From Chitinophagales bacterium (GTDB taxonomy: Bacteria > Bacteroidota > Bacteroidia > Chitinophagales > UBA10324), in assembly GCA_035638255.1 (NCBI GenBank), contig DASRAJ010000157.1:94827-158826 (forward strand): a stretch of 64,000 nt of DNA. Reading direction: 5' to 3'. The position numbers and the translations under genes were made by a program. How positions within the stretch are numbered: the stretch's first letter is position 1; each line of letters starts with the position of its first letter. This document shows positions 11,594-62,545 of this stretch, piece by piece. Under the pieces are notes generated by a model. It worked only from the letters and a program-made list of their open reading frames with translations. It made no database searches and was not told the origin of the DNA.

Positions 11594-11595
11594 TT

Positions 11596-11693
11596 GGTGA
11601 ATGGTGAATGGTGAATGGTGAATGGTGAATGGTCAGTGGTCAATGGTGAATGGTCAATAGTCAATGGTCAATGGTCAATGGTCAATGGTCAAT
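11596..11693. repeat. 14-unit tandem heptanucleotide array (GGTGAAT/GGTCAAT)
   Basis: Read directly: 5x GGTGAAT, GGTCAGT, GGTCAAT, GGTGAAT, GGTCAAT, AGTCAAT, 4x GGTCAAT. It starts 2 nt from the bshB1 start codon and lies in the bshB1/idi divergent intergenic region. Confidence 0.95.
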
Positions 11694-11749
11694 GGTTAGG
11701 TAATACAAGTGCAAAGGTAATTTTTACGAACACCTTACTTTGCAGGATT

Positions 11750-25487: not shown

Positions 25488-25735
25488 TCACTCCATATAA
25501 ACCACCTTCTCCACCTCCCCAACATTAACTCTCCCATTCTCTTCCCTCCTCTTCATCTCCTCCAGCGCACTTGCCACAAATTTTACAAACAACGGATGAG
25601 GATTATCTACTGTACTCTTCAGCTCCGGATGATACTGCACACCGATAAACCAAGGATGCTTTTTAAGTTCCATCACTTCCAACAAATCACTTTCAGGGTT
25701 CGTGCCCACTGCAGCAAAACCATTTTCTACTGGCA
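25488..25735 (-). pseudogene. duplicated 3-prime fragment of CTP synthase (pyrG)
   Basis: About 237 nt align with the 3-prime end of the intact pyrG at 26160-26396 with 19 mismatches by my count. The translation differs at only 3 of 71 residues. There is no upstream pyrG sequence. Confidence 0.85.
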
Positions 25736-26158: not shown

Positions 26159-27950
<1,792 letters not shown>

Positions 27951-31073: not shown

Positions 31074-32657
31074 CTATCTTATAATTACAACTTCAGTTTC
31101 TCCAAATTGTATTTCACTCCCCGCAACCAAATGATAACTTCCGGAAGGAAGATTTTTTGACTGGATCGAAACTATTTGATTGCTCCGATTTACTGTTATA
31201 TTACTCATGCTTAACACGGCCTGACCGATACTGTTAAATAACTCAAGAGTCATCTTATCTGAATTCTCAGAAGTGATTGTGACATTTATTTCATCTGAAG
31301 CAGGAACAGGAAAAGCGCTGATGCTAAATGCAGGATAAGTAATTGGTGACGGGATGCCCACAACCGATGATAACTTAAACAACACAACATCACCAGCTCC
31401 GTGATTGTTAGTCACGTCCCCATCATTTGAATCTGTGCTTCCCGTAAAAATAACTTCCTGACCATTGAAGAAACTCACATCCCACATCTCATCGTAACCT
31501 GAGCCGCCAATACATTTTTGCCAGACAAGATTACCCGATGAATCTACCTCGATGATCCAGCCATCAACCGAACCATGATTTCCTGACACATCTCCATCAT
31601 TAGAATCAACAAAACCGGAAAGAATAAAATGATGATCAGATGTTTCCAGTAATCCAAATGGGATATCAAAACCGGAACCCCCGAAACATTTTTGCCAGAT
31701 TATATCACCATCGGAATCCAAATGCACTAACCAAAAATCCCAGATGCCATGATTTCCTGAGACGTCTCCATCATTTGATTCCGTAAAACTTAAGACCATA
31801 TAACGTCCTTCAAAAACCTGAAGCGCATTAAATCCCTCTTCGCCGAGCGAACCGCCTAAACACTTTTGCCAGACGAGGTCACCGTCAGCATTAAGTCGAA
31901 GAACCCATGTACTACCGCTTGTTTGGTCGCAGCCGATAGGATCTCCATCTATTGAGGAAGATGCTCCGGCAACAATGTATCCTCCATCAGAACAGGTGCT
32001 GATTCCTACACCCAGATCCGCATCACTGCCGCCATAGTTCTTGTTCCAAACAATATTTCCGAAAGTATCCACCTTTGTTACCCACAGATCATATTGCCCT
32101 TTGTTGCCTGTAAAATCGCCATCGTTAGAATCTGTAAATCCTGTAATAACAATTGCTTTATCCAATGAAAGTGTAGCAAATTGCACATTATCATTGGACG
32201 AACCACCAATAGATTTCTGCCAGATAATCTGTCCCGATTTTGTTAAGCGAACTACCCAATAGTCATGATCACCATGGTTGCCGGAAACATCTCCATCATT
32301 GGACTTCGAATATGCTACTATAAAGTATCCGTTGCCTGCTTCATATCCATCATATCCAAAATCTGCATTCGTGCCTCCCAAACATTTCTGCCATTGAAGA
32401 CTTCCGTTTGCATCTAACTTAACCGCCCAAACGTCCTGAAGAGTATCATGTAATCCGGAAACATCTCCGTCATTTGAGCGGGTAACACCTACAATCAAAA
32501 TACCTCCGTCAGAAGTTTCATGCGCTCTGAAATTGCCCTCGCTATTTGACCCGCCAAAACATTTCTGCTGGAGAATTGATGGTTGCGTAAAGGCGATTGT
32601 TGCTTCTGTTAAAAGCAGAATTAGAATAGTAAGGGTCTTTTGTATAAATGACTTCAT
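31074..32657 (-). CDS. secreted repeat (beta-propeller-like) protein with T9SS C-terminal domain
   Basis: Seven to eight ~48-aa repeats of SNDGDVSGNHG..D.W.VKLD..G...WQKC.GGS..D, plus a signal peptide and a CTD. Confidence 0.8.
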   Translation of the reverse strand: MKSFIQKTLTILILLLTEATIAFTQPSILQQKCFGGSNSEGNFRAHETSDGGILIVGVTRSNDGDVSGLHDTLQDVWAVKLDANGSLQWQKCLGGTNADFGYDGYEAGNGYFIVAYSKSNDGDVSGNHGDHDYWVVRLTKSGQIIWQKSIGGSSNDNVQFATLSLDKAIVITGFTDSNDGDFTGNKGQYDLWVTKVDTFGNIVWNKNYGGSDADLGVGISTCSDGGYIVAGASSSIDGDPIGCDQTSGSTWVLRLNADGDLVWQKCLGGSLGEEGFNALQVFEGRYMVLSFTESNDGDVSGNHGIWDFWLVHLDSDGDIIWQKCFGGSGFDIPFGLLETSDHHFILSGFVDSNDGDVSGNHGSVDGWIIEVDSSGNLVWQKCIGGSGYDEMWDVSFFNGQEVIFTGSTDSNDGDVTNNHGAGDVVLFKLSSVVGIPSPITYPAFSISAFPVPASDEINVTITSENSDKMTLELFNSIGQAVLSMSNITVNRSNQIVSIQSKNLPSGSYHLVAGSEIQFGETEVVIIR

Positions 32658-35871: not shown

Positions 35872-38043
35872 CTATGGAAGAGGTGCAATGGCAATGGCTG
35901 CGGTGTCACCTGCATCGAGATAATCCAGCGAGTTAACACCATCAGTATGCGTCGCATCAACGTGCAAGGTTTCTGCAAATGCTGCCTGCGGACAGGTACC
36001 AAGCATGGTGCCCACCGGGATTACTTTTGAATAAGCATCGAGCGGACTTGCTCCCATGGGTGAATTACCAACGGTGTAGAAATTATTTCCAATGGTTACT
36101 GCACCGGCTGAATTGCCTTCGATTACAGGATTGCTGTTTCCTTTCGTCACATTGAAACTATAGGTCGCAAAGTCGTGCGGATGTCCGGCAACGAAACGCA
36201 GCGTAACATTGTCCGTAGCCTTGTCATTGTAATAGCCAAAGCCGCACACGGTATCTGTAGTACCACTTGGAACAATCGCATCCTGAACATCAGCATAACA
36301 GTGATTATTATCAATGCGCATATAAAAACGGAATGCAATGGCCAGTCCCGCACCATTCTTGACCACATAGTGTTCGGGCAATCCATCGGCTGTTACCGTT
36401 TCCTGGGAAGGATCGAGAACAATGTCGGAAGGTTTCTTGGAAACCACATACGTGTCTGCAGGTATAGCCTGAACAACACCGGCCGCATTGACCAATTCGA
36501 AGGTTAGTTCATAGAGGCCTTCCATGGATAGTCCTGTTGTATTCAGATAAATGGTTGCCGTGTCCTGCCGTTCCCATTCTGCTCCCGGTTCGGGTACATC
36601 CAGTACTGCATCCGTATGCGGTATTTTATATTGAGCGTTTCCGCCAACCATTGCTGCACCCATCGGAAAATTATTAGAAGCGAATTGTGTATGTCCGGCC
36701 ACTACAATCGGATAGGTATAGTGCTTTGCAATATCTCCGGAGAGGTTATGATCGCCATCAGCAATAGGATTCAGGTTCCCGTCAAAAATTCTTTTAAACC
36801 TCCAGCGATAATGCGATGCGGCGGCGTTCGGGAATCCTGCACCGAACTGAACTACGAGTGGAAACGTGCTTCCAAACGGACTGATGTTTCCATAACCTCC
36901 GTATTGTGTAAGACCAACGGCGTCCGCCAAATGACCGCTGGCTGCGTGAGACTGTTGAATGCCCCGAATACTTGCTCCGAAGTTGATGCTCTTCATCCAG
37001 ATCACATCACCCGGCAATGGATCGCAAGAGCAGGGCCTCACCCGGTCATCATAGATGCGGATGTTGATGTCCGTTCCGCAGGGATAATTCCACCAGGTGT
37101 GGCAAGGTTTAAAGGGACGATAAACCGTTACCCAATTACCATCAATCAATACCTCAACCCAGACGTAAATGTTCTTGCCGCCGAAGTCCCAGAAGCTGAA
37201 ATCGAAATGACCGTTGCAATCACTTTCTGCCACGCCTAATTCTGTGCAGCGATAGAACCACGGCCAAAACCAGGGCCATAAGCAGAAGTAGGGATGCAAA
37301 TCGGTAAAGTGTTCTAAAACAGAGCTCTTAATGGCAGATAGTGAATCAGAGATGATGGCTGTTTGAACTTTTGCAGGAAGCGTAGGCAACGCAATCGTTT
37401 TGGCATTGCCGGTTGTAGAACTCATAACCTTTGCCATCCTGATACCCGGAACTCCTGATAGGAATGGTGGGTCCGGTGGATTGGGATTCGGGATGGGAAT
37501 TGGAATGCGTTCTTTCGGCCAGTCAATATGCGGGCGAAGCTTGGTGGCTAAATCAATGAATACCCAATCGGGGATATGGTTCCACCAAATAATAATCGGA
37601 TCAATATCACACACATGAACTCTTGCATCGCAAACAGGCAATATCTTCTCGACTCCATCAATGATAAACGATTTGGTCAGGTTACCTGTAATGTGACACC
37701 ATGGCCAGAAGATGGGCCAGTCAATGTGAGGTATAGCCGTAACATCAATTGTATGCTCAGGAGAAATAATGGTGGAGGTTTGAAATCCGCCCGCATTCTT
37801 CAACATGCCCGCTGAAACATTTTGAGCTAACTCTTTCGGCATTGGCGGGCCTATGATAAGTTGAACCTGGCCTCGCATAAGCGCCACCGGAGTTTCCAAT
37901 GTTGCCTCTCCTTTTGAAATGGGTTTAGACTCCAGCAATTTGCCGGTAGCATTTTCGAATACATAGGCATGAGCATTTTTCAATGCTTCGTGATGCCTGC
38001 TGTCAATTTTTAGTTTGACAGGCTTTGATCTTGTGTCTTTCAT
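35872..38043 (-). CDS. 723-aa orphan protein, no signal peptide
   Basis: Long uninterrupted ORF. Trp/Pro-rich patches (IDWPIFWPWCH, CLWPWFWPWFYRC, PIPIPNPNPPDPP) and a beta-rich C-terminal half. It is preceded by a partial copy of the shared leader. Confidence 0.75.
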   Translation of the reverse strand: MKDTRSKPVKLKIDSRHHEALKNAHAYVFENATGKLLESKPISKGEATLETPVALMRGQVQLIIGPPMPKELAQNVSAGMLKNAGGFQTSTIISPEHTIDVTAIPHIDWPIFWPWCHITGNLTKSFIIDGVEKILPVCDARVHVCDIDPIIIWWNHIPDWVFIDLATKLRPHIDWPKERIPIPIPNPNPPDPPFLSGVPGIRMAKVMSSTTGNAKTIALPTLPAKVQTAIISDSLSAIKSSVLEHFTDLHPYFCLWPWFWPWFYRCTELGVAESDCNGHFDFSFWDFGGKNIYVWVEVLIDGNWVTVYRPFKPCHTWWNYPCGTDINIRIYDDRVRPCSCDPLPGDVIWMKSINFGASIRGIQQSHAASGHLADAVGLTQYGGYGNISPFGSTFPLVVQFGAGFPNAAASHYRWRFKRIFDGNLNPIADGDHNLSGDIAKHYTYPIVVAGHTQFASNNFPMGAAMVGGNAQYKIPHTDAVLDVPEPGAEWERQDTATIYLNTTGLSMEGLYELTFELVNAAGVVQAIPADTYVVSKKPSDIVLDPSQETVTADGLPEHYVVKNGAGLAIAFRFYMRIDNNHCYADVQDAIVPSGTTDTVCGFGYYNDKATDNVTLRFVAGHPHDFATYSFNVTKGNSNPVIEGNSAGAVTIGNNFYTVGNSPMGASPLDAYSKVIPVGTMLGTCPQAAFAETLHVDATHTDGVNSLDYLDAGDTAAIAIAPLP

Positions 38044-38110
38044 AAGTTATTTTTTTTGCCTACTCTATTTCCCTTTTCAGCTTCCGGGTGCTTACTCTTT
38101 TCTTAGGATT
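38044..38110 (-). promoter_or_regulatory. partial copy of shared 5-prime leader (proximal block)
   Basis: ttttgcctactctatttcccttttcagcttccgggtgcttactctttt parallels ttttcgcctactcgttcccttttcggctgccgggtgcttactcttttt at 41593-41640. Confidence 0.6.
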
Positions 38111-38263
38111 TTCAGCTTGCTCCTTCTTTATCACATCTATAGTTCCGGGGAATCCATTCGCTGGCCTTCGACAAAGGCTAAAGCATTCTTGAAATATGGA
38201 TTAGTGGGATCTCTTCTTTCCTTTGCCTGATTTTATTCTGCATTTAGCATTAAGAGACAGGAA

Positions 38264-38743
38264 TTAATAAAGAAGCGTTAGTGAAGTATATCCTTCACTG
38301 CTATCGGTGCTTAGCATTATATCCCGTCCGAAATAAAAACGATTGTAATTTTCCTGCCAGGCAAATGAATCTATAGTGCCGGGAATAAATTGCAGGTCAC
38401 CGCTGACAATCGTACTGTCAATATTTACCTTCTCCCATGCATCATCTCCCTCAGCGATGAGCTTTACTTTCAGGTGACCACTTAGACCGTTTTCAAATTC
38501 TTTATAGCAGGGGAGGGCAGTGCCTGAAAAGGCAACTCCGGGACCATCGGGGTTTTTAAATTCCCAACAGTAAGCTGCATCGGAATCTTTACCGAGGCGA
38601 AGTGTGCGGCCCGGTTCCAGATTGGCGCGTTGAAGTAATTCATTATCACGATAGATTTCAAGGACTACAGGAGCGTTACTTCTGCTCCACCAGTTGTGAC
38701 CGGTTTGAATTGTCCAATAAACTTTGGTTACTTTAGTTGACAT
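38264..38743 (-). CDS. 159-aa PLAT/LH2-like beta-sandwich protein (tentative), no signal peptide
   Basis: VYWTIQTGHNWWSRSNAPVVLEIYRDNELL...LGKDSDAAYCWEF...LKVKLIAEGDDAWEKVNI follows the PLAT pattern (T.G....gTda.V...l.G.......L........f.rg......F......g.l..i.i..d..g....W....v). The assignment is by pattern only. Confidence 0.65.
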   Translation of the reverse strand: MSTKVTKVYWTIQTGHNWWSRSNAPVVLEIYRDNELLQRANLEPGRTLRLGKDSDAAYCWEFKNPDGPGVAFSGTALPCYKEFENGLSGHLKVKLIAEGDDAWEKVNIDSTIVSGDLQFIPGTIDSFAWQENYNRFYFGRDIMLSTDSSEGYTSLTLLY

Positions 38744-39035
38744 GACTTTTGATTTTGTTTTTTTCGCCTATTCCTAAAACCATTTCGGCTTCCGAATACT
38801 TCCTCTTTTTATCCCGTTCTTTCAGTGCTTACGGGCACAGGAAAGAGGGGCAAGGATTTTTAGCAAACTCCTATATGAATTGATTTATGAAAATGCTGTT
38901 GTTTTAAATCTTATGGCAGCAAAGGTGCAGTTCAGCGCTACTCCAGTACAACGGGAAAAACACCAGTAACCGCGGGTGATTTAACGGGGGTGAAAGAGCG
39001 GTTATATAGGAAGGAATAGGTTCTTTGCAGCAGAT
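38744..39035 (-). promoter_or_regulatory. shared leader/promoter module, copy 1 (proximal block plus shortened distal block)
   Basis: Contains the block ctctttttatcccgttctttcagtgcttacgggcacaggaaagaggggcaaggatttttagcaaactcctatat (about 74 nt), which I read as identical to copy 2. It also has the distal gcagcaaaggtgca...acaacgggaaaaacacc...gggtgatttaacgggggtgaaagagcggtt. Confidence 0.75.
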
Positions 39036-39323
39036 AAATCATCTACAAAATCATGGAAACAAATAATTCAATGGACAAACCTATAGGACATGGCGGGGCT
39101 ACAGCTATTAATACCGCATTTTGCAGTTCAATAAAATGAACCGCAGACCTGTCCCGATTTTTTTCGGGAGAGCGCAAAGAATTTCGCAGAGAAAAAAGGC
39201 AAAGTTTGACACCAGATAATTTGTAACTTTTTCTTTGTGCTATTCTTTGCGTTTTACTCCGGGTTCTTTGCGACAAAAATTCGAACTGCAAATTTCGGGT
39301 TAATCGGTTGTTCTTCGATTGTT

Positions 39324-40226
39324 TTAACCCTCTTTAAGCAATCTTGCAACAGCATTAGCAATCGGTAGTCCTGTCTTCAATTCAAAGTATGAAAATGCCG
39401 GTGAAGCATTTACTTCAAAGCAATACCATTCGCCTTTTGAAGTGCACCGCAGATCAATGCCTGATAGATGGAAGCCCAGGTGTTTGGAGAGCTCGATGCA
39501 ATTATTTTCAACAGCTTGCGGCAGGGTTACAATTTCCATTTCAGTTTGAGAGTAACGATAGTCTTCAGCAACAGAATGGATTTTGCAACTAAACGTACGA
39601 GTACCCACCACGTGTACTCGATAGTCAGTGCCTGCAATAAATTGCTGGAATTGTGTGGGGCAAAATTGGACATCCTTCATCCGAACGTAATCTTCGTCAG
39701 ACAATTTACGGACAATACTTCGAATTCCGCTGATGGATTTATAAATGATTTGTCCATGTCGCTTCCAAAATTTCTTCAGTTCATATGGAGACGTGGTTAT
39801 TAATGTTTCAGGTATAGAGAAGCCGAAATTCCCGATGATTGAACATTGATAAGGTTTGGAATGATTGGAAGCCATCAAAGAAGGACGGTTAATAACCAAA
39901 GCGTCGGTCATTTCAGACCAGCTCCATAGAATGTCTTCCGCCGCCGCCATTTGCTGAATATGACTATCAGTTGTGTCAAGGGCTTCATACTCCTCATAAT
40001 CCCTGAAATTATAAGTTCTAAAATAACATGTGCTGATATCGCTAACTGAAATTTTTTCTCCATAAATCTCTATCGTTCCTTTCAGCTTTGGAATAAAATT
40101 GATTTTTACTTTCAGCTCATCTAAATCGCGGTGGTTAAGAAAATAGAACGGTACATTCATTCGCTTCAATTCGTCAAACACCATTTGCATCGGTGTATCA
40201 TCTAACAGTCCCCAAAGCAGTATCAT
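39324..40226 (-). CDS. ATP-grasp enzyme (MvdD/MdnC/RimK-like)
   Basis: NHSKPYQCSIIGNFGFSIPETLIT....LKKFW......IYKSISG...TQFQQFIAGTDYRVHVVGTRTFSCKIHS...DYRY....IVTLP......C.ELSKHLGFHLSGIDLR.T..GEWYCFEVNASPAFSYFE..TGLPIANAVARLL parallels microviridin-type ATP-grasp ligases. The start is moved to MILLWGLLDD (ATG at 40226, 1 nt after the upstream stop). Confidence 0.8.
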   Translation of the reverse strand: MILLWGLLDDTPMQMVFDELKRMNVPFYFLNHRDLDELKVKINFIPKLKGTIEIYGEKISVSDISTCYFRTYNFRDYEEYEALDTTDSHIQQMAAAEDILWSWSEMTDALVINRPSLMASNHSKPYQCSIIGNFGFSIPETLITTSPYELKKFWKRHGQIIYKSISGIRSIVRKLSDEDYVRMKDVQFCPTQFQQFIAGTDYRVHVVGTRTFSCKIHSVAEDYRYSQTEMEIVTLPQAVENNCIELSKHLGFHLSGIDLRCTSKGEWYCFEVNASPAFSYFELKTGLPIANAVARLLKEG

Positions 40227-40227
40227 G

Positions 40228-40926
40228 TCAAGTTTTTTTTGAAAAGAATTTAATGATTGCAGCAGCCACTTTTTTGTCATTAATATCGGGAAACTGAGAT
40301 GCATGTGCAAACTTCCATTCGCCATCAAAATTTCTTTTGAAACCGACTTGCAATAGATTTAAGTTCGTCACTTCAGCTAACCGGAGTGAATAATTTTGAA
40401 GCACTGCATTCTTTGTACCGATACATTTTCGCCCAATAACAGTTATTCTCGCATAGTCTTCATTTTTCAATGTGTTTGTTGTATAAGACCTTGTATTGGA
40501 TCTCTTCAATGATAGGGTAGGGATGGCTTGTTGCTGTGCCAATTTCATCCAATATTCTAATCTCCACAGTTGACCATTCAAGCAAGTGGGCGAAGGAGGG
40601 TTGAGTACAGGACATTTCAACTGTGAAAGAAACCATAGCATGAACGCATTCATTTCGCTGGCCACATAACTACGGTCTTCTTTATTTATTTGGACCAATT
40701 CCATCGGATAGATATTTGGAATAAGCGTGAGAACTCCTGAGATATTTCCAAGTTGGATTTTTTTACCCGATGCAACAATGCTTCCCTTCTCAATTTGATG
40801 GAAGAGAATATCTGTATCCTTTCTCGACAGATCCATACTCGTAAGTAAAGAGGCCGCCCCCCTGGTAAACTTATTTACCAAAGAAGCGGCTGCTTCGTCA
40901 AGAATGCTTGCAATTACCAGGACCAT
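40228..40926 (-). CDS. short ATP-grasp-like partner protein (N-terminal/central-domain-like, no obvious catalytic C-terminus)
   Basis: 232 aa. MVLVIASILDEAA...VLTLIPNIYP...YVASEMNAFMLWFLSQLKCPVLNPPS resembles the pre-ATP-grasp and substrate-clamp part of MdnB/C-type enzymes. Its start overlaps the upstream stop (TAATG). Confidence 0.6.
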   Translation of the reverse strand: MVLVIASILDEAAASLVNKFTRGAASLLTSMDLSRKDTDILFHQIEKGSIVASGKKIQLGNISGVLTLIPNIYPMELVQINKEDRSYVASEMNAFMLWFLSQLKCPVLNPPSPTCLNGQLWRLEYWMKLAQQQAIPTLSLKRSNTRSYTTNTLKNEDYARITVIGRKCIGTKNAVLQNYSLRLAEVTNLNLLQVGFKRNFDGEWKFAHASQFPDINDKKVAAAIIKFFSKKT

Positions 40927-41576
40927 TAGTTCTTGTTGCCTTTTCTTGCGGCTTTAGCTACTTTGCTTCCTACGGCAGGGCGTTCAGTTGATTTTATGAA
41001 AGCAGGGTTTTGACCAATAGTTTTTTCAAGCCCTTCTAAACGCTGTTCAACAGAGGCAAGCCATGCGGGATCACCAATATTTTGGAATGGGTCTCCTACT
41101 TCAGCATCTTTTAGCTTAGGAATTTCTATCTCCCGCTTTTGATGTACCTCATAAATAAATTCCTTATACTCTTTGAATTCTTTGAAATCTTTAATGAACT
41201 CCTTATGGGTCTCTTTGATATCTTTATTCTCTTTAATAAACTTGTGAAAAGGTTGGAAGCAAGTGAGAACAAGATCATTAAAATCCCCATCGCCGGCATC
41301 TTCTGATAAAATGTCGAAGGACACACCTGTTCCTAAAACAGTAGGGGAAGTAAGCTGCATAGCGGAATCCCGAAAAACGCCACTGCCAGGATTATTTTGG
41401 ATTTGAATCGTCCAGGGAAATCCGGCTCCGGCAAGTACAGTTACCGGCGGTGAGCCAACAGTGCCCGGATGAGGGCCGTTGTTTGTTCCGCCGCCGCTTA
41501 CTACAAACTGCTGAGCAAAAGCAGCAGACTTGGATTTTACAGTAATGGTCCAAGTTCCATGCATTGTAAGTGACAT
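40926..41576 (-). CDS. 216-aa protein: LecB/DUF4114-like calcium-lectin motif domain plus KEF-repeat charged tail, no signal peptide
   Basis: FDILSEDAGDGDFNDLVLTCFQP aligns with the LecB (PA-IIL) C-terminus FALVGSEDGTDNDYNDAVVVINWP, recalled from memory. It is followed by HKFIKENKDIKETHKEFIKDFKEFKEYKEFIYE. Confidence 0.7.
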   Translation of the reverse strand: MSLTMHGTWTITVKSKSAAFAQQFVVSGGGTNNGPHPGTVGSPPVTVLAGAGFPWTIQIQNNPGSGVFRDSAMQLTSPTVLGTGVSFDILSEDAGDGDFNDLVLTCFQPFHKFIKENKDIKETHKEFIKDFKEFKEYKEFIYEVHQKREIEIPKLKDAEVGDPFQNIGDPAWLASVEQRLEGLEKTIGQNPAFIKSTERPAVGSKVAKAARKGNKN

Positions 41577-41925
41577 AAGTTAAAGTTTTTACTTTTTCGC
41601 CTACTCGTTCCCTTTTCGGCTGCCGGGTGCTTACTCTTTTTATCCCGTTCTTTCAGTGCTTACGGGCACAGGAAAGAGGGGCAAGGATTTTTAGCAAACT
41701 CCTATATAATTAATTTTTAAACCTTCCGGTCTGTTAAGTCTGTGTAAAAGTTGATGAAAGCTGTTGCACATCTGAAAAGAAATTCTTTTAATCTTGTCGC
41801 AGCAAAGGTGCAGTGCAGCGATACCGCCGTACAACGGGAAAAATACCGGAAGCCGGGGGTGATTTAACGGGGGTGAAAGAGCGGTTGTATAAGAAAGAAT
41901 GAGTGGGTTCCTTGTATAGGATAAA
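41577..41925 (-). promoter_or_regulatory. shared leader/promoter module, copy 2 (full length)
   Basis: Proximal block 41577-41712 matches copy 1. Distal block 41719-41925 is nearly identical to 46097-46300. It contains the direct repeat GGGGGTGA-N6-GGGGGTGA (41855-41876). Confidence 0.75.
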
Positions 41926-42096
41926 CATTGTTGGCTTTAACTTTCAATCCAGTAAGCCGATATTAGTCTTGCAATCGCATACTTTACCACATCTGACCAA
42001 TTTCAATAACCAGTACCAGAAGTTATAAGTAATTCAATATTCCAGACAACAAGAAAGGATTGATGGTTGTTAACCATTTCAGGTTGCTTCGACTAT

Positions 42097-43287
42097 TCAA
42101 TCAAGCATTAGCGGGGGAAAGGCGGCTTCTGAATATGCCTGTTCTATTTTTCTAACCGTTTTTTCCCAGAGCCACTTTTTCCTTACCTCTTTTGCCCCGG
42201 CTATTCCAAGCCGCTTGCGAAGTGAAGTGTTTCTTGATAACTCGATAATGGATTCTGCCAGCGCATTGGGGTTTTTTGGAGGGACTAATTTTGCAGACAC
42301 ATTATGAGCTAAGATTTCAGATGGACCTCCAATGTTTGTTGCAACTATAGGCAAACCATATAGCATTCCTTCAAGAACAACCATACCAAAGGGTTCATAC
42401 CAGCTTGGAATCACCAGCATGTCTGCTTTTTCATACCATCCGTTTATTTCGCCAGGTGTAAGCCAACCTGTGAAATGCACTTGGTTTTTAAAGGGGGTAA
42501 GTGTATCAACCAAGCATTCTTTTTCGATTTCAACACCTCCGCCATAACCGCCTGCCAAAACAAATTTGGCCTTAGGGAAAGAGGTAAGTACTGTTGGAAT
42601 AGCATCTATCAAATCCCAAATTCCCTTTCGCTCTACAAATCTTCCGGTGTATAAAATAGTCAACTCAGTTTCTTTCCATTCGCGTTTTATAGAAGATAGC
42701 TCTGCCTCTTTATAATCTTCAATTCCGTTTCCTGCTACGCTTACTTTGTTTATTGCCTGAGGATAATATTCGGCCAGTATTTCCTTTTCACTTTCTGAAA
42801 TGGCAATGATTCGATCTGATTCATCGATGGCTTGTTCCTGCACCTGCCAGTGATTAAAAAGTTTCCCCACCTCATACTCAGCCTTGTCAATCGAATGCAC
42901 GGTAAAAACAATTGGGCAGTTACATCTTTCGCGTATTCTCATTGCGACAGGTAGTAACCATGCAGTGTGCAGATGTATAATATCAGGCACCCAATATTCT
43001 GATAACACATCAGCGATCTTCCATGCTTCGTTGGGAGCGACGTGAAAGAATAAAATATTTTCACGAACAATGATTTTTTCAGTGGAGAATTGATCTCTCA
43101 GGTCTTCCATTGAGTTGGTCTCCCAGCTTCCATAAGGCTGTTTATTCAGAACCAAAGCCCCACCGACAAGCAATACTCCAACTGAATAATGTTCTTTAGC
43201 GAGCGCTTTTGTCAATCCGCCTACTGCTGTACCGAGGCCTCCCCAAATTATAGGAGGATATTCCGGCGTTATGTGAAGGATTTTCAT
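42097..43287 (-). CDS. family 4 glycosyltransferase (glycogen-synthase-like GT-B)
   Basis: MKILHITPEYPP..WGGLG N-terminus and EPFGMVVLEGMLYGLPIVATNIGGPSEI (E-x7-E region). Confidence 0.85.
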   Translation of the reverse strand: MKILHITPEYPPIIWGGLGTAVGGLTKALAKEHYSVGVLLVGGALVLNKQPYGSWETNSMEDLRDQFSTEKIIVRENILFFHVAPNEAWKIADVLSEYWVPDIIHLHTAWLLPVAMRIRERCNCPIVFTVHSIDKAEYEVGKLFNHWQVQEQAIDESDRIIAISESEKEILAEYYPQAINKVSVAGNGIEDYKEAELSSIKREWKETELTILYTGRFVERKGIWDLIDAIPTVLTSFPKAKFVLAGGYGGGVEIEKECLVDTLTPFKNQVHFTGWLTPGEINGWYEKADMLVIPSWYEPFGMVVLEGMLYGLPIVATNIGGPSEILAHNVSAKLVPPKNPNALAESIIELSRNTSLRKRLGIAGAKEVRKKWLWEKTVRKIEQAYSEAAFPPLMLD

Positions 43288-43370
43288 GTATGATTCACGA
43301 CTAAAACTTTTTTATATCATAGAACATCTCAGCATTGTATTTTAAGGCATTGTTTAAAGAACAACAGGTT

Positions 43371-45866
43371 CTAAATTGCTTTGAACTGAATCCTTCTGAA
43401 TGATACCCTGCCAGTGTGCGTTTGCAATCCAACAAAATGGGTAACATCACTTCCTCTTAGCGGATCAGGATTAGAATAATCTGTTACTAAGCTCCCGTTG
43501 AGGAAGACATTGTAATTCTGACCGATGCACAGAATTTCCATTTGATTCCACTCTCCAGGATTTTTTAATTGCGGATTATTAGGCGCAGCAAATCCATAGA
43601 TGGCCGCGGTTTTATGAATATCCAAACCAGGGGGATTTCCCTCTCCGATGTTATTAATCTGAACCTCGAAGCCAAAATTGATAGCCACGTAAGCCGTGTT
43701 ATCAAAACCCTTGCTGTCTATATTAGGGAAGCGAACGAATACTCCGGAATTATCATCGTCACGCCATGTGAGAAACTCCAGTTTCAAGCTGTAATTCTGT
43801 GGCATCGCATCGGTATAATAAAGTAATCCTAAATCATTTCCTGGCTGTGATTCTAAAGCGCCACGTACGATATTAAAGCTACCGGGATTATCCCGGCCCG
43901 GTTGATTTTTAATGGTGCTCATCTTCCATTTACTCAAGTCAACTCCGTTAAACATCATTGTATAACCGGCATCGGGTACATCAGGAGGAACAATAAATTG
44001 ATCGGCTAACCTTCTTGCGAGTCCAACCCCAGTCAACATCGGATTAGGTGATCCTACTGTCGGAAACAGAACAGGTCCTGCGGCATAAGCATTGGAAACG
44101 AAATGAAATTTCCCGGTTTCATCCGTAACCGAATTCATGGGGTCACTGCCCATCCATAAAGTGCCGGCTTCATGATGCGTGGTGCCCATGCCATCTCGCC
44201 TTCCGCCATTCCAGCGATAGTCATAAGCATATAGGGCTTTCAAATCAGTAGCGGCGTTAGCAGGAAGCCATGCGTTTGAATTCGACAGCACCTCGAAATC
44301 TTCTCCATCAGCAAAAACTTTTGCAACATCATCTGAAGCTTTATCCATTGCATCCCACAATGCCATATCATTTGCGTTTAGACTATACGTGATGAAAGCG
44401 CGGGTTACTCCAACTTCATCAACCGGTTGCTCTGTAGCGAGGCGTATAAAACTTCCGGGATTTCTTGCTTCGGTTTCACCTATGCCCCTGATAGTAATAA
44501 CAACCGTAGTATCACTTGATTGGTTGAGCGCGTTGACAGAATCGAAGTCAGGAATTTTTTTGAAAAGCTCAGCTTCTGAATCTGTTGTTGGCTTTGAAAC
44601 TCCCGAAGCTGTTATCTGCAAATGGAAGAATCCTTTCTTGCCATTACCGCGATCGTGAGCGCCTTTAACAAACAGTGCAGATGCTTCGAGGGCTTGCAAT
44701 ACTGAACCCAGATTTTTTACTGACGTGCGCGGAATTCGTATAGTGAGATTCGATCGCAAATGCGCCATCAGGTTCTGGCCAATAAGGTTGTAGTTATTAA
44801 TTCCCTGAAAAGAAAGTAATGCCAGGCGGGTATTTTCAATGGTACCAATTGCGAGCACCACTTTGGTGCTTTCAGCAAGTGAGATAAATCCCTGCGTGGT
44901 TTCGATGCCGGTTACATGTGCAGTACCGTTAATTATTTCGGTTTGCAAACGAATTACCCTGCAATGCGGAACCACCATCAATCTCTTCTTAACATCATCA
45001 GGAGTGCCGTTGTGCATTGATTCGTTCGAGGCCTTTCGTGTTGAATCAATCATAAGTGGTACAGCACTGAATTTATTGATTGGAAATAATCCCGAAGCAC
45101 TCTTGGTTTGCACGGCGAGCGGCGCTTCTAATTTGAACTCGTTTACCTTTAATGGAGAAGAACCCGGAGGCGTTCCCGGATTAACAGGTAGCTTATTGAA
45201 AGGTATAGCATCAGAAATGTTTCCGTTCTTTATGCCGTCATGCAATTGCTTTCTGAGAGCATTATGAAGACCTCCATGGATAAAATCGTTACTAACATCG
45301 GTTCCTATTTGTGAGGCAGCTTCGGCGAAATACTTATTGTTAAGCTCATCCTTAACTATAGATGGCCATTTGTCATCAGGCATTTCAGTTAGGCCATTTA
45401 AATTTAAAAGTTGCGGCGACCAACCACCAAAAAATACTGACCTGCCTCCTAAACAATAGGACAGCCCTGGGAAGCCACCTTTAACATCCGAGCGCCATGG
45501 CAATCCCCATATTTCATTTCGTGGCACCATGGGATCAATTTCCGTTGCGCCGGGCGGAACGAGACCCAGTATGGGATAATTCTGAAAATGCTCACTCAGG
45601 ACAAATGGTCCTGCTTCAAGAATGAGAATGCGGTGGCTGTGACTTTTGTCTTTTTCAAAAAGATGTTGGGCAAACACAGGCCCGAAACTGCCACCGCCAA
45701 TCACTATAATGTCAAATGGGAGTGCATCGTTTTGCGGACTTCCGTCTTTGCGGCTTCGTCCCTTATCTGTACTGTTGATTGCTTCATCAAAACCATTGCA
45801 GATATATCTTCCCAATACATCTTTCGAAAAATCGGTTTCCTGAGATTTAATTGCTGTCATAAACAA
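43371..45866 (-). CDS. GMC-family FAD oxidoreductase fused to a C-terminal DUF1080 (3-keto-disaccharide-hydrolase-like) domain
   Basis: IIVIGGGSFGPVFAQ...ILILEAGP Rossmann motif. HHEAGTLWMG.D...SVTDETGKFH.VSNAYAAGPVLFPTVGSPNPMLTGVGLARR is the GMC C-terminal catalytic region. The C-terminal ~200 aa (MMFNGVDLSKWK...FEVQI...GEWNQMEI...FLNG...VGLQTHTGRVSFRRIQFK) are DUF1080-like. Confidence 0.8.
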   Translation of the reverse strand: MFMTAIKSQETDFSKDVLGRYICNGFDEAINSTDKGRSRKDGSPQNDALPFDIIVIGGGSFGPVFAQHLFEKDKSHSHRILILEAGPFVLSEHFQNYPILGLVPPGATEIDPMVPRNEIWGLPWRSDVKGGFPGLSYCLGGRSVFFGGWSPQLLNLNGLTEMPDDKWPSIVKDELNNKYFAEAASQIGTDVSNDFIHGGLHNALRKQLHDGIKNGNISDAIPFNKLPVNPGTPPGSSPLKVNEFKLEAPLAVQTKSASGLFPINKFSAVPLMIDSTRKASNESMHNGTPDDVKKRLMVVPHCRVIRLQTEIINGTAHVTGIETTQGFISLAESTKVVLAIGTIENTRLALLSFQGINNYNLIGQNLMAHLRSNLTIRIPRTSVKNLGSVLQALEASALFVKGAHDRGNGKKGFFHLQITASGVSKPTTDSEAELFKKIPDFDSVNALNQSSDTTVVITIRGIGETEARNPGSFIRLATEQPVDEVGVTRAFITYSLNANDMALWDAMDKASDDVAKVFADGEDFEVLSNSNAWLPANAATDLKALYAYDYRWNGGRRDGMGTTHHEAGTLWMGSDPMNSVTDETGKFHFVSNAYAAGPVLFPTVGSPNPMLTGVGLARRLADQFIVPPDVPDAGYTMMFNGVDLSKWKMSTIKNQPGRDNPGSFNIVRGALESQPGNDLGLLYYTDAMPQNYSLKLEFLTWRDDDNSGVFVRFPNIDSKGFDNTAYVAINFGFEVQINNIGEGNPPGLDIHKTAAIYGFAAPNNPQLKNPGEWNQMEILCIGQNYNVFLNGSLVTDYSNPDPLRGSDVTHFVGLQTHTGRVSFRRIQFKAI

Positions 45867-46096
45867 AAAGGTTTTAAGGTATTTGAATCTGCAGTTTATT
45901 TTTTTTGACTTAGGATTAAGGGGCGTTATAAAGATTTTCTGTAACCTTCGTTTTTATTTTTAAGGTTGATTTTTGTAAAATAGTTGAAGCCTTTTTTTTC
46001 AAATCGATTCAGATAGCATGTGAAGATATTCGTCAAGTACGGAAATCCTGATCTCTCGCCACTTTCAATCCCATTTAATATATTTAGGCTCTGGTT

Positions 46097-46300
46097 AAAA
46101 TCTTTCGGTCTGTTAAGCCTGTGTAAAAGTTGATGAAAGCTATTGCACATCTGAAAAGAAATTCTTTTAATCTTGTCGCAGCAAAGGTGCAAGACAACGC
46201 TACCGCAACACAACGGGAAAAACACCAGGAGCCGGGGGTGATTTAACGGGGGTGAAAGAGCGGTTGTATAAGAAAGGAAGGAATAGGTTCTTTGCAGCGA
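46097..46300 (-). promoter_or_regulatory. shared distal promoter/leader block, copy 3 (between the GMC gene and the divergent lipoprotein gene)
   Basis: Near-identical to 41719-41925 apart from a ~25-nt variable patch. The proximal block is absent here. Confidence 0.7.
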
Positions 46301-46340
46301 ATAAATAATCTATAAAAAAACTTGGTTAAACAATTCTCCT

Positions 46341-47504
46341 ATGCAAAACATTAAAAAGACGCCGATAGAGGCACTATGTAAATACCTGCTTTATGGAATA
46401 GTGATGATCGTGTTGTGGCTACATTTTTCCTGCAAGCAACAACAAACGAGTCCTGCACCTATTGAGAACATTTCAGACGACGCGTACTGTGCGACCAAGG
46501 TTGATAGCCTGATCCAAAGTCCTGAAGACCATACCGTGTTGGATTTCGAAAACCTGAGCCGCCAATGCCAGATGAAATTCCTGAAACAAGGACAGGACTC
46601 CCTTAGTGTAATGGATTCTACATCTCAGCATTTTCTCGCCTTAAGTCAGTTAGTATATGAAGCCGGATATTATCTTCTTGAGAAAGAGTATGAGGCAATT
46701 TGGTTTGAGGCACATAAAGGAAAATCAGTGCTTTATGACAATACAATTCCTGCTCAAAATGTGGTGGCAGGCTTTGATGTAAAAGTGAAAATAAGTGTAT
46801 TGATTCAGTACTATACTAATTCTGGCTTTGGAGACAATGGCGGAATTTTATGTGAGCCGGTTCTTGGTCCGATATTACCAGACGGGACAAGGGCTCTTGC
46901 AATTATGATTGCTACAGCTAATTCAGTGAATGGGAGTGGTAGCGGTTCGCTCACCATCAGCCAATATTGCGTTCTTAATAATCCGGGTCCGTACAGTAAT
47001 ATTTCTGACTTACATTTGTTGACACCACCATCGCCACCTCTGCCAGCAAGCCCCTTTAACACTACTATAGGAAGCCCAATTATTTCTTCTCATGACCCAA
47101 GAACTTACCGCTTTTATAGCTGGGACATGATCTATAATCACTACATTAAAGATAACCACCTTGATCCCCAATCTCCCTTCGCTTCGGATGGCAGACCCAA
47201 TAACCCAAACGGCTACATAGGTTTTGAGCTTGGTTATATTGATGGCGATATGCAGACACAGATTTGGGATCCACTACCTCCTAATGATGGCAGCGGTGCT
47301 ATATTATCTGTTGCGCCATATAATTATAACAAAGATGATGTATCAGGCATTACCACGCTCTTACCGCTTTATGACGATAAGGGTCACCTCGTTTTTAATC
47401 CCGCGGTAATGTTACCAAAAGATGCAGGAGGGAAAGGTGAAGGATACATCATGGAAATAGGAAAGCCCTGTCCGCCATACTGCGGCAGTAGTGGTACTCT
47501 TTAA
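46341..47504 (+). CDS. hypothetical lipoprotein
   Basis: 387 aa. A TM/signal segment ends in HFSCK (lipobox-like). Pro-rich central region, no family recognised. Confidence 0.65.
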   Translation: MQNIKKTPIEALCKYLLYGIVMIVLWLHFSCKQQQTSPAPIENISDDAYCATKVDSLIQSPEDHTVLDFENLSRQCQMKFLKQGQDSLSVMDSTSQHFLALSQLVYEAGYYLLEKEYEAIWFEAHKGKSVLYDNTIPAQNVVAGFDVKVKISVLIQYYTNSGFGDNGGILCEPVLGPILPDGTRALAIMIATANSVNGSGSGSLTISQYCVLNNPGPYSNISDLHLLTPPSPPLPASPFNTTIGSPIISSHDPRTYRFYSWDMIYNHYIKDNHLDPQSPFASDGRPNNPNGYIGFELGYIDGDMQTQIWDPLPPNDGSGAILSVAPYNYNKDDVSGITTLLPLYDDKGHLVFNPAVMLPKDAGGKGEGYIMEIGKPCPPYCGSSGTL

Positions 47505-47521: not shown

Positions 47522-48241
47522 TTGCGAAGAAATCCCCACCGCCCAGTGAGTGATTTCTTCAAGGATATTTTTACGTGGATTCCTTTCGATGTTGAGCTTG
47601 GAACTGTTCTCATCTTTATCCTTTTTTCCAAAACACTTACAACAGAAGAAGTAATGGCAGCGGTAATAATTTTTGTTTCCTGGTTGATGGATGTTTTCAG
47701 CGATGCTATAACATTCAGTTATCATCCATTCTGGTTACTGCTTCAGGAGCACAGTAATCTCTGGTTCCCGAATTATAGCATGCCCATCATTTTCGCTTTG
47801 TATGCTATTTTGTATTTCTATCTTTTTCGAAAGCTGGAAATAAAATGGATAGTAGTATCCGGTTTCATGTTTTTTCTGTTACTCCATGTTGTCAACTTAT
47901 TATATTACCAGGGTTACCGGGGAACTGCAAGCAATTCATTGCTCGCCGGTCAGCTGCTAATTGGCGCCCTGGCATTTTTATACCTCCGGCATGTTGTGGA
48001 AACATCAGATGAGTCACCTTTTCGGAATTTTATGTTTTGGTTCTCTGCTGCAACATTGCTGAGTAATTTTGTTACGGCGCCTGTGACTTCCCTTTTAAGC
48101 TGGCTCCCATCAAATGACCCTAAAGTTTTTGGTGCGCTTTATAGTATTATTGGATTGTACATCGGTTACTACCTCAGTTACTTAATCATCATCATTGGAT
48201 TATTATGGACCCGAAAGCGTGGGATATTATTTTTTCAGTAG
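47522..48241 (+). CDS. multi-pass membrane protein, probably the detached sensor module of the downstream histidine kinase
   Basis: Six or so TM helices. It ends 37 nt inside the next ORF in another frame, at a T6 run. Confidence 0.55.
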   Translation: MRRNPHRPVSDFFKDIFTWIPFDVELGTVLIFILFSKTLTTEEVMAAVIIFVSWLMDVFSDAITFSYHPFWLLLQEHSNLWFPNYSMPIIFALYAILYFYLFRKLEIKWIVVSGFMFFLLLHVVNLLYYQGYRGTASNSLLAGQLLIGALAFLYLRHVVETSDESPFRNFMFWFSAATLLSNFVTAPVTSLLSWLPSNDPKVFGALYSIIGLYIGYYLSYLIIIIGLLWTRKRGILFFQ

Positions 48242-48999
48242 GCATTAGCACCTTCGCATTGCTTGTGCTTTTTGTGCTGGTAATCAATTTGCTTTTGGTG
48301 AGCCGCAACAAAAGGCTGACACACCGCAATGAGGTCCTTGAAATGAAAACCTCCTTCGAGAAAGAGTTGATGAAAACACAAGTGGAAGTCGCAGAAAATA
48401 CACTCAACGATATTGCCCGCGATTTGCACGATGATGTAGGACAGATGCTTACGTTCAGCATCATTCAGCTTAACAACATTCGACCGATGCCCGATGCAGC
48501 GACAGAAAAAAATATCGCGGCAGCCCGCGAGTCGGTACAAAACACACTTCAAAGTGTACGCAGTATTTCGAAAACACTCAGCAATGATTATCTTTCTTCT
48601 TTTGGAATGGAGGAATCTTTAAAGAGATTGTTTGAGCGAATTGCAAGACAGGGTATCGTCAGGACTACTCTTGTTTTCCCTGCAAACGTCCTGTTTAGTT
48701 CCCGGTCTAATGAAGTGTTTGCCTTTCGCATTATTCAGGAATTGGTCACAAATACTCTGAAACATTCCGGTGCAACAGAATTGTCACTGATCATCAGCGA
48801 AGCGGACGGTAATATTCAAATAGAGTATAGTGACAACGGCAAAGGGTTGCATGGAGATCAATTTAACAATGAGCAACTAAAAAACAGCCTGGGCTTTACG
48901 AATATTTTCAAGCGGGCGGAATTAATGCATGGCGAAATCACCATTTCAAATAATTCAGAAGGTGGATTCTATCTTCGTCTTTCATTTCCGAATAAGTAA
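48205..48999 (+). CDS. HisKA_3-type sensor histidine kinase (kinase core)
   Basis: H-box ARDLHDDVGQMLT, N-box ELVTNTLKHSGA, G1 DNGKGL, C-terminal GEITISNNSEGGFYLRLSFP. Confidence 0.8.
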   Translation: MDPKAWDIIFSVGISTFALLVLFVLVINLLLVSRNKRLTHRNEVLEMKTSFEKELMKTQVEVAENTLNDIARDLHDDVGQMLTFSIIQLNNIRPMPDAATEKNIAAARESVQNTLQSVRSISKTLSNDYLSSFGMEESLKRLFERIARQGIVRTTLVFPANVLFSSRSNEVFAFRIIQELVTNTLKHSGATELSLIISEADGNIQIEYSDNGKGLHGDQFNNEQLKNSLGFTNIFKRAELMHGEITISNNSEGGFYLRLSFPNK

Positions 49000-49053
49000 G
49001 AGTATTTCAACGCGTGATCAAGAGCGCAAAATCAAAACGAAACCTTCCCCAAT

Positions 49054-49737
49054 ATGCAGATCAAAATTGCACTTACCGACGATCACCAATTGGTGCGAAG
49101 CGGCATAAAAATGCTCATTGAAAATTTTCCGGAATTCAAAGTTGTCGTCGAGGCATCAAATGGAAAGGAGCTTCTGGAAAAACTCGCACTGCTAAAAGTT
49201 CTGCCTGAAATTGCAATGGTTGATGTTGCTATGCCGGTAATGGATGGATTTGAAACAACAAGAGAGTTGATTAGACAATACCCAAAGCTGAGGGTTGTAG
49301 CCTTGTCAGTCCATGATGATCTCCAAAGCGTGAATAGTATGATTGAAAGCGGAGCGAATGCTTACTTACTCAAAGATTCTTCTCCGCAAATTGTAAGGAA
49401 CACGTTGCAGCAGGTTTTTGAAAAAGGATATTACTACGATAAGTTTGTGATCGAAAGTTTGATGAAAGCAAGGCAGAAGCAGCAAGATGATGAACTGAAA
49501 AAAAACAACAGGTCGGGCCGTAACTCCGGAATTGATCCTGCATCACTTCTCACAGTCAGAGAGATTGAGTTCATGAAGCATAGCTGCAGCGAACTCACCT
49601 ATAAAGAAATTGCTGACCTCATGGAGGTTAGTTTGCGAACAGTTGACGGCTATCGCGAATCGGTATTCTCCAAACTTGATTTGAAATCAAGAACCGGAAT
49701 TGTTTTGTATGCTATTCATAAAGGATTGGCCCAGTAA
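49054..49737 (+). CDS. NarL/LuxR-family response regulator
   Basis: REC domain (IALTDDH...MVDVAMPVMDG...ALSVH) and a C-terminal LuxR HTH (LTVREIEFMKHSCSELTYKEIADLMEVSLRTVDGYRESVFSKL). Confidence 0.9.
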   Translation: MQIKIALTDDHQLVRSGIKMLIENFPEFKVVVEASNGKELLEKLALLKVLPEIAMVDVAMPVMDGFETTRELIRQYPKLRVVALSVHDDLQSVNSMIESGANAYLLKDSSPQIVRNTLQQVFEKGYYYDKFVIESLMKARQKQQDDELKKNNRSGRNSGIDPASLLTVREIEFMKHSCSELTYKEIADLMEVSLRTVDGYRESVFSKLDLKSRTGIVLYAIHKGLAQ

Positions 49738-60185: not shown

Positions 60186-60206
60186 TTTTTACATGGTACT
60201 TTCAAG

Positions 60207-60238
60207 AACCTCCGGGCAAATTGTTCGGAGGTTTTTTT
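60207..60238 (+). terminator. rho-independent terminator
   Basis: aaCCTCCGggcaaattgttCGGAGGttttttt. Confidence 0.8.
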
Positions 60239-62385: not shown

Positions 62386-62419
62386 CTGAATTTTTAAAAA
62401 ACCTCCGGGCAATTGTTCG
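62386..62419 (+). terminator. rho-independent terminator (near-identical to 60207..60238)
   Basis: aaaaaaCCTCCGggcaattgttCGGAGGtttttt. Confidence 0.8.
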
Positions 62420-62545
62420 GAGGTTTTTTGTTAAGAAGATGTTGGTGTGAAGAAACCCGAGAATAATAATTTCAAATTTTGAATAATTGTCCCGATTGAT
62501 CGGGATGGATAAATTGTTAAATGGCTTTCGCTCCCTCTGTTATTT

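Follow-up and report, generated by a model that had tools for sequence, protein, structure and literature searches.

Two identical 74-nt blocks in a Chitinophagales gene cluster as the probable 5′ half of extended DUF805b RNA leaders

DUF805b is an RNA motif catalogued in Rfam as cis-regulatory (RF02914) and grouped with the DUF805 motif (RF02913) in clan CL00115. It comes from Weinberg et al. 2017 (NAR 45:10811; PMC5737381), the main text of which does not name the motif. It is an orphan in the catalogue, and a literature search returned no paper discussing the DUF805 RNA motif. Its original description reportedly includes two or three adjacent units and non-homologous downstream genes. Shine-Dalgarno (SD) sequences go unrecognised by the ribosomes of Bacteroidia (PMC7797042, PMC6847099, PMC9976891, PMC13000453), and how start sites are chosen without them in Bacteroidota is still being worked out. 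The subject of the work presented here is a stretch of 64,000 nt from a Chitinophagales bacterium (assembly GCA_035638255.1, contig DASRAJ010000157.1, positions 94,827 to 158,826), referred to throughout as the window. A block of 74 nt occurs twice on its minus strand, in the leaders (A and B) of two different genes, and a third leader (C) precedes the gene of a 723-aa protein. We consider that the block is very probably the 5′ half of a DUF805b-class RNA leader. An earlier note on this DNA had argued for a functional element of the 5′ untranslated region rather than drift, and a conserved element of the 5′ untranslated or intercistronic RNA is borne out by relatives with covarying stems at 85 or more loci. 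Comparison with Rfam does yield a conserved RNA element, one which is already catalogued as DUF805b and is not new: it is a member of that family with an extended architecture, and not a new class.

The scan of the window against Rfam identified DUF805b in two of the three leaders. One match, in leader C (38089-38125, 41.0 bits), lies above the gathering score of 35.6, and two lie below it, at 41598-41629 in leader A (26.4 bits, E 2.4e-5 in a short search) and at 38057-38088 in leader C (23.0 bits). Nothing was reported by Rfam for the hairpins within the 74-nt block. The family consensus, AAGGcGGAAgCCGAAAAgCCUuAAaAGAGUAGGcA, combines a 12-nt loop closed by a 4-bp stem with a purine tail. At 41598-41629 a CCC/GGG stem, within the 3–4 bp usual for the family, encloses GGCAGCCGAAAA, a 12-nt loop of the type GGAAGCCGAAAA, and a purine-rich tail of the type AAaAGAGUAGGcA directly follows a hairpin both at 41628-41641 (AAAAAGAGUAAGCA) and at 41598-41609 (AACGAGUAGGCG). 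The genomic context is also that of the family: the three leaders stand before three unrelated genes, in a window which encodes C-terminal sorting domains of the type IX secretion system (T9SS).

Relatives were collected with a degenerate two-unit pattern (GAGTARGC, 3–9 nt, AGCYGAAA, 4–16 nt, GAGTARGC), taking one genome per species. This gave 85 loci with the tandem, nearly all from Bacteroidota and including Chitinophagaceae, Mucilaginibacter, Pedobacter, Flavipsychrobacter, Taibaiella, Paludibacter and Spirosomataceae. From 74 canonical tandem relatives (alignment A3) we built a tandem covariance model, R1, used together with a single-unit model, R2. Run over the whole window with filters off, R1 reports exactly three strong sites, one in each leader (Table 1), and in leaders A and B it aligns the CCCGU/ACGGG pairing of the block as hairpin 1. 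R2 recovers the unit nearest the start codon in leader A (41598-41629, 35.2 bits, E 1.4e-9) and gives 13.4 bits (E 0.018) at 41630-41667 and 7.2 bits for the 5′ hairpins. That DUF805b leaders are arrays of units, each with a 3–4-bp hairpin, a 12-nt loop (GNAAGCYGAAAA) and a purine tail AAAAGAGUARGCA, is well supported. Judged by these scores, the block proper is a diverged relative of these canonical units, and it is the full array, not the block by itself, that carries the assignment.

The stems of the family covary. In A3 and in A4, a model alignment of 112 sequences, about 92% of cells in the stems H1 and H2 are paired; shuffling the columns gives 77–80%, and none of 500 shuffles reaches the observed value. 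Pairs are kept in 86–98% of cases per helix, and double changes occur at every stem pair. In the downstream unit the conserved stem is the outer CCC/GGG around the 12-nt loop. The earlier note had instead seen a short hairpin downstream of the block, differing between copies and keeping its pairing. Hairpins of this CGG/CCG type are there as described, as are the CTCTTT/AAAGAG and CCCGT/ACGGG segments, and given the RF02914 match and consensus they correspond to the loop region of a DUF805b unit. As a conserved pairing this inner hairpin (CGG-AAG-CCG) is rejected: with 65.8% of its cells paired, and 65.7% once columns are shuffled, it has no covariation support.

Within each unit, about 20 of the 35 positions hardly vary from one order to another, and the loop triplet GCY covaries with the tail triplet RGC of the same unit. 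For unit 2 the loop and tail bases are C-G in 79 sequences, U-A in 8, U-G in 3 and C-A in 2 (Fisher p = 7e-8), and loop Y and tail R are also associated in unit 1 (Fisher p = 2e-5); association of a loop with the tail of the other unit is weak. The switch occurs while the type of stem is unchanged (L016 and L073 among our numbered loci), so that it is not a mere swap of unit types, and changes of the first pair from G-C to A-U are found in hits outside the selection made by the search pattern (L047:3469, L047:4540). Taken together, the two 3-bp loop-tail helices are paired in 94.1% of cells against 90.4% on shuffling (0/500), with 34 doubly changed cells against 9.8. A small 3-bp loop-tail pseudoknot in each unit is thus a candidate structure with moderate covariation support, drawn from sequences that are related to one another. 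The family also tolerates variation in architecture. An extra hairpin of variable sequence lies between hairpin 1 and its tail in 14 of 92 relatives (e.g. L028), and single-unit leaders also occur. A count of units per leader by regular expression was dropped as too noisy, since mononucleotide-shuffled loci gave 41 hits.

These data bear on the alternative that the repeat is a DNA-level element only, a duplicated part of a promoter or operator, copied recently and without RNA function. Such an origin would sit well with the identity of the two copies, which hence carry no covariation information of their own, with a separate distal block repeated three times, with the two-component system encoded nearby and with leaders that fold no better than shuffles. 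It is very improbable, however, in view of the compensatory changes that hold both stems paired across 111 distinct relatives, of the strand-specific placement, which in every case keeps the element a constant distance upstream of a start codon, and of the absence of room for a promoter between the cistrons of two clusters (L039, L028).

Each of the three leaders in the window includes two hairpin-plus-purine-tail units and, in A and B, these are preceded by an additional 5′ hairpin (H0) and then by a pyrimidine linker (Table 1). It is well supported that leaders A and B are extended arrays: a 5′ hairpin of unit geometry, the pyrimidine linker, a diverged hairpin (H1′), tail 1 and a canonical unit 21 nt from the ATG. 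The first 20 structured bases of the block, AGGAGUUUGCUAAAAAUCCU, which form H0, give weak local matches to the hairpin parts of the models (to hairpin 1 of R1 with 11.3 bits, E 0.73; to R2 with E 1.9). The H0 loop UGCU could pair with AGCA of tail 1, a pairing lengthened to 7 bp in the minimum free energy (MFE) fold, and the H1′ loop fits the tail less well. The block ends in AAAAAGAG, which, with the UAAGCA that follows, forms the tail of a preceding unit; in leader B, tail 1 continues beyond the identity as GAGGAAGUA. H1′ is either a diverged unit hairpin or an extra hairpin inserted between a hairpin and its tail, as in the 14 relatives mentioned above, and the order of H0, linker, H1′ and tail 1 correspondingly represents either the insertion type or a third unit. 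The linker was not seen in the upstream flanks of the relatives examined, and the second unit of leader B was found neither by Rfam nor by R2. In the fold proposed in the earlier note, a CCCGT/ACGGG hairpin was nested within an outer CTCTTT/AAAGAG stem. The inner hairpin is plausible, being aligned by the tandem model as a unit hairpin. The outer stem would engage the tail AAAGAG, which is unpaired in the family consensus structure used, and since the two copies are identical it has no covariation information. MFE structures were set aside: they are not better than those of shuffles, and leaders A and B fold differently.

Table 1. Positions of the leaders, their component parts, the model matches and adjacent features (window coordinates)
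Feature	Position	Strand	Remarks
74-nt block, copy A	41634-41707	-	upstream of 216-aa gene; exact match
74-nt block, copy B	38803-38876	-	upstream of 159-aa gene; exact match
5′ hairpin H0 (copy A), AGGA-GUUUGCUAAAAA-UCCU	41684-41703	-	DUF805b hairpin geometry: 4-bp stem, 12-nt loop
H0 (copy B), same hairpin	38853-38872	-	
Pyrimidine-rich linker UGCCCCUCUUUCCUGUG	41667-41683	-	contains CUCUUU of the earlier note
Hairpin H1′, CCCGU-AAGCACUGAAAGA-ACGGG	41644-41666	-	aligned by R1 as hairpin 1
Tail 1, AUAAAAAGAGUAAGCA	41628-41643	-	74-nt identity stops inside, after GAG
Canonical DUF805b unit: CCC/GGG stem, loop GGCAGCCGAAAA, tail AACGAGUAGGCG	41598-41629	-	Rfam RF02914 and R2
A-rich, G-poor linker (21 nt), tail 2 to ATG	41577-41597	-	ATG of 216-aa gene at 41574-41576
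Copy B: H1′, diverged tail 1, diverged second unit (UUCGGAAGCCGAAAUGG...GAAUAGGCG)	38765-38836	-	R1 30.6 bits, E 3.9e-5; then 21-nt linker and ATG at 38741-38743
Copy C, canonical two-unit leader before 723-aa gene	38057-38126	-	units 38089-38125 and 38057-38088; ATG 38041-38043
R1 site, leader C	38057-38126	-	81.3 bits, E 2.3e-16; in training set
R1 site, leader A	41598-41667	-	53.0 bits, E 4e-10; outside training set
R1 site, leader B	38765-38836	-	30.6 bits, E 4e-5; outside training set
Genes behind copies A and B	38264-41576	-	216 aa, 232 aa, ATP-grasp protein (39324-40328), 159 aa
Distal block, copy 1 of 3	41716-41925	-	others 46095-46317, 38903-39050; about 150–210 nt

The two copies of the block are identical without a single mismatch, as the earlier note had read them, and no such match arose in 100 shuffles. 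Its coordinates for them (41639-41712 and 38806-38879) were too high by 5 and 3 nt respectively. The approximately 60 nt between the block and each ATG, described there as loosely similar, are 71–78% alike (repeat family D6), and the third version it had noticed before the 723-aa gene is present, though it extends to 38126 and not only to 38110. An independent contig of the same organism from Logan (L001) starts at the first base of copy A and, by BLAST match, ends about 30 nt inside copy B, the assembler behaviour expected for a true exact repeat. Constraint by itself is insufficient to explain 100% identity, since the rest of the leader is only 71–78% alike and the family varies at many positions of the block. 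The simplest reading is that the identity probably results from recent duplication or gene conversion between the leaders of one cluster. Another cluster (L028, positions 4788-6082, minus strand) carries three leaders, two of which, before unrelated genes, show two differences; its inserted hairpin, AUCUGCC...GGCAGAU, is unlike that of the window. It seems to be an independent case of leaders homogenised inside a cluster.

A mobile element could also account for a repeat of this kind, the block being the terminus or a relic of a miniature inverted-repeat transposable element or the end of an insertion sequence; it occurs more than once in a single genome, and other assemblies have contigs that break nearby. 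However, no flanking inverted repeats and no adjacent transposase were found, 72,556 plasmid and 50,697 phage records contain no match, and all copies have one orientation and one position relative to start codons. We give such an origin next to no chance, and the reading as an RNA element, which the earlier note would have abandoned on a match to a mobile-element terminus, stands.

The leaders are strand-specific RNA modules, each coupled to the start codon of its own cistron, and the element is confined to Bacteroidota. In the 91 instances with a downstream open reading frame (ORF), the end of tail 2 lies at a median of 19 nt from the ATG and within 10–29 nt in about 85%; the distances in the window are 21, 21 and 13 nt. 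The linker between them is A/U-rich and almost free of G, like start regions of Bacteroidota, and across the family G falls below about 7% at linker positions 4–16. No terminator separates the units from the ATG in leaders A and C; leader B has a weak hairpin and U-run there, which are not conserved in relatives. Bacteroidota orthologues of the 159-aa protein carry the leader (L028, L096 and, in Terrimonas, L097), and one orthologue from Verrucomicrobiales and one from Arthrobacter have an SD-like GAGG 7–12 nt before the ATG in its place. Leaders with an additional hairpin between tail 2 and the ATG (e.g. GTGCTTTTTGATTTATAAAAGCAT) precede proteins of about 72–92 aa at four loci (L037, L047, L048, L092), and Chitinophaga sp. 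CF118 has at least 8 leaders of this type within about 16 kb.

The downstream genes have little in common. Among 91 proteins, 61 unrelated BLAST clusters were distinguished, most of them without a Pfam family and none of those sampled encoding a DUF805 domain. Annotated members include phage tail-collar proteins, a GEVED domain, an enzyme of the MbnB/TglH/ChrH family acting on ribosomally synthesised and post-translationally modified peptides (RiPPs), outer membrane beta-barrels and peptidases. Homologues of all three genes of the window carry the leader elsewhere (L074 and L094; L033; L028).

Leaders are also found inside operons. In 15 of 92 cases they start no more than 60 nt past a same-strand stop codon, and in one array of five consecutive cistrons (L039, positions 2199-6336, minus strand) each spacer of 85–110 nt is filled by one tandem leader which, where the spacer was read base by base, begins 1–2 nt beyond the stop codon. 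Among the proteins encoded by this array are a dipeptidase resembling M19, a lysozyme of phage type and an M15/VanY peptidase that has a peptidoglycan-binding domain. Such placement would suit a device for mRNA processing or stabilisation, comparable to the intercistronic pentatricopeptide repeat protein sites of chloroplasts or the 5′ stabilisers of Gram-positive bacteria, in which the units would block exonucleases or define cleavage sites, leaving each cistron on a stable, separately translated mRNA. The complete filling of the L039 spacers, the leaders lying directly behind stop codons and the several loci with three to five leaders each are in line with it. A pure stabiliser would not need tight spacing to the ATG, though, and such a role could coexist with an action at the translation start without replacing it; as the whole explanation we find it quite unlikely.

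What the leaders do is a more tentative matter than what they are. Fixed spacing to the ATG, a modular number of copies, tolerated inserted hairpins, unrelated genes and intercistronic placement together point to a site read by a trans-acting partner. As the most likely role we propose, with somewhat less than even confidence, that in mRNAs without an SD sequence the leader may act in cis, as an RNA module that a conserved factor recognises where translation starts. The units would do so on the RNA, at every cistron's own translation start region. They would fold, probably into compact hairpin-pseudoknots in which loop GCY meets tail RGC, and the bases that are invariant in loop and tail would be offered to a conserved partner acting in trans, which might be the 30S platform, bS1 or an RNA-binding regulator. 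This partner would then set the loading of ribosomes on the A-rich stretch just downstream. Identity and mechanism taken jointly receive a probability of about 0.55, a compromise between the high confidence we place in the first and the lower one we place in the second.

The functions suggested in the earlier note included both protein binding and a riboswitch-like activity. The former fits the data better; the latter is possible and not favoured. In a riboswitch model the 35-nt units would be minimal H-type pseudoknot aptamers, as in preQ1-I, and cooperative binding of a small molecule or second messenger by the tandem would alter access of the ribosome. The size and layout of the units (a hairpin followed by an A-rich tail, with a short helix between loop and tail), their near-invariant positions and the tandem arrangement, which is the rule, all agree with this, and the variety of downstream genes resembles that of second-messenger riboswitches. 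Against these stand the lack of a coherent metabolic theme in the 61 downstream families and the lack of a visible conserved expression platform, with no terminator in leaders A and C and a conserved part that stops about 19 nt short of the ATG. Moreover, inspection by eye of the flanks examined revealed no conserved pairing with the start region, no Rfam riboswitch family is reported at E up to 10 in 37900-46500, and the loose architecture, with single units and extra hairpins, is more typical of modular binding sites. A riboswitch appears unlikely.

Several observations weigh against the proposal of a DUF805b leader acting at the translation start. By its low R2 scores, the 74-nt block alone is only weakly like canonical units. 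The MFE folds of two leaders are no more stable than those of shuffled sequences (z = -0.96 and -1.70). The putative pseudoknot has only 3 bp, and roughly one sequence in four has it mismatched (C-A) in unit 1. No fixed upstream position is seen for TAnnTTTG, the canonical -7 box of Bacteroidota, which gives 17 scattered hits in 83 upstream regions of relatives, and the window contains only candidates with one mismatch, such as CACCTTTG in all three distal blocks; H0 and the pyrimidine linker are accordingly putative parts of the transcript. The tandem is absent from 2.9 million viral contigs, a weak argument, as phages would be expected to borrow a generic translation enhancer. Finally, the results are compatible with activation and repression alike.

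A more specific picture is that DUF805b units are hairpin-pseudoknots serving as a structure-based, SD-independent docking signal for accessory genes of Bacteroidota (RiPP-type, cell-wall-degrading, lectin-like). In some operons each cistron would have such a signal in front of it, and the reader would be the 30S platform, bS1 or an RNA-binding regulator dedicated to the task. We regard this as possible and rather doubtful. If true, the signal would delimit a regulon controlled after transcription, in a phylum with ribosomes that disregard SD sequences. For an orphan motif, the present analysis adds constraints on any model: the spacing of about 19 nt, the occupancy of whole spacers, a candidate 3-bp pseudoknot, the tolerance of an inserted hairpin, the SD-like replacement in other phyla and copying within clusters. 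Should a conserved partner exist, accessory genes about which little is known would form a regulon marked by the motif, and DUF805b could serve as a portable expression part for Bacteroidota.

Of the genes behind leaders A and B, the 216-aa ORF (40926-41576) has a weak hit to the PA-IIL lectin and a Lys/Glu-rich segment. The operon behind leader A ends with the ATP-grasp protein, whose best match is to the RiPP-maturase subfamily TIGR04187 (135 bits; curated cut-off 350), with weaker matches to MvdC and MvdD, and the region 39324-41576 (minus strand) may represent a cluster of the graspetide type. An inverted repeat at 39173-39251, with 24-nt arms that are 83% complementary and 31 nt apart, lies close downstream of the ATP-grasp gene and is possibly the operon terminator. 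Only four homologues of the 216-aa protein were found. A distant homologue of its operon (L005, encoding proteins of 278 aa and 233 aa and a RimK-like protein of 300 aa) has a recognisable, degenerate leader, and the breaks of five independent assemblies (L005-L009), all of them 82–101 nt upstream of the gene, hint at a repeat in that place as well. The 159-aa ORF (38264-38743, minus strand) belongs to a well-conserved family without a Pfam model, with 112 homologues at 52–72% identity in Bacteroidota, Verrucomicrobiales and Arthrobacter. Its AlphaFold model (predicted local distance difference test score, pLDDT, 89.8) is an all-beta sandwich, weakly like the PLAT/LH2 domains of alpha-toxin and lipoxygenases (Foldseek E ~5e-3, TM 0.4–0.48). 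A metagenome scan with this protein gave one weak locus and was not useful.

The distal block occurs upstream of three transcription units. Its copies are 84–88% alike and share an identical core, AACCGCTCTTTCACCCCCGTTAAATCACCC; it is absent from all relatives fetched. One of the three units is that of an 831-aa GMC-oxidoreductase fusion which has no DUF805b leader, so that the distal block is an independent module, possibly a promoter or operator region. A scan for sigma-70 promoters gave hits at chance level and is inapplicable to Bacteroidota. At 48205-49737 on the plus strand the window further encodes a short histidine kinase of the HisKA_3 type (about 265 aa) together with a response regulator of the NarL/LuxR type (about 215 aa). 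A two-component system of this kind adjoins leader-bearing genes here and in about 8 of 84 loci (including L061, L063, L071, L072 and L089), in unrelated genomes whose response regulators are 38–43% identical to that of the window. Roughly estimated, this is no more than about double what chance would give, and the link was not used as evidence.

Other repeats in the window are of different kinds. They comprise a tandem array of 7-nt units (TGGTGAA, TGGTCAA) at 11581-11706; repeats recurring every 174 nt (31399-32488; families D3 and D5) inside the gene of a 527-aa protein with a T9SS C-terminal sorting domain (31074-32657); a direct repeat of 241 nt, 92% identical, with copies 671 nt apart (25488-25728 and 26159-26399); and a repeated terminator-like hairpin, CCTCCGGGCAA..TTGTTCGGAGG, followed by a T run (60200-60237 and 62392-62429).

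Several known RNAs resemble the DUF805b leaders in part. Like them, the guanidine-II (mini-ykkC) riboswitch lies upstream of a start codon and consists of a tandem pair of very small hairpins whose loops are conserved, but it is distinguished by an ACGR tetraloop, coherent downstream genes (guanidine export) and the absence of a conserved tail. The preQ1-I riboswitch (about 34 nt, an H-type pseudoknot with an A-rich tail and tandem forms) is close to the units in size, in its hairpin and A-rich tail, in its short helix between loop and 3′ tail and in its position near the translation start. There is, however, no sequence or model match between the two and there are no queuosine-related genes downstream; in addition, the DUF805b unit has five loop bases, GAAAA, between the pseudoknot strand and the stem, and its second helix does not cover the ribosome-binding site. 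The leader of E. coli rpsA enhances translation without an SD and is built from hairpins that carry conserved motifs in their loops, and target leaders of CsrA/RsmA contain several hairpin loops with GGA. By analogy these too are arrays of small hairpins with an invariant loop motif and A/U-rich single strands, just upstream of a start codon without a strong SD, although the motif sequences are unrelated and those systems concern one gene (rpsA) or a known protein (CsrA), the latter not known from Bacteroidota. The closest system remains DUF805b itself, with which the leaders share the consensus, the size of stem and loop, the purine tail, the adjacent units and the non-homologous Bacteroidota genes downstream. 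Relative to the family as catalogued, the canonical unit of leader A stays under the gathering score, and the block extends the array by a 5′ hairpin without a tail of its own, a pyrimidine linker and a diverged hairpin.

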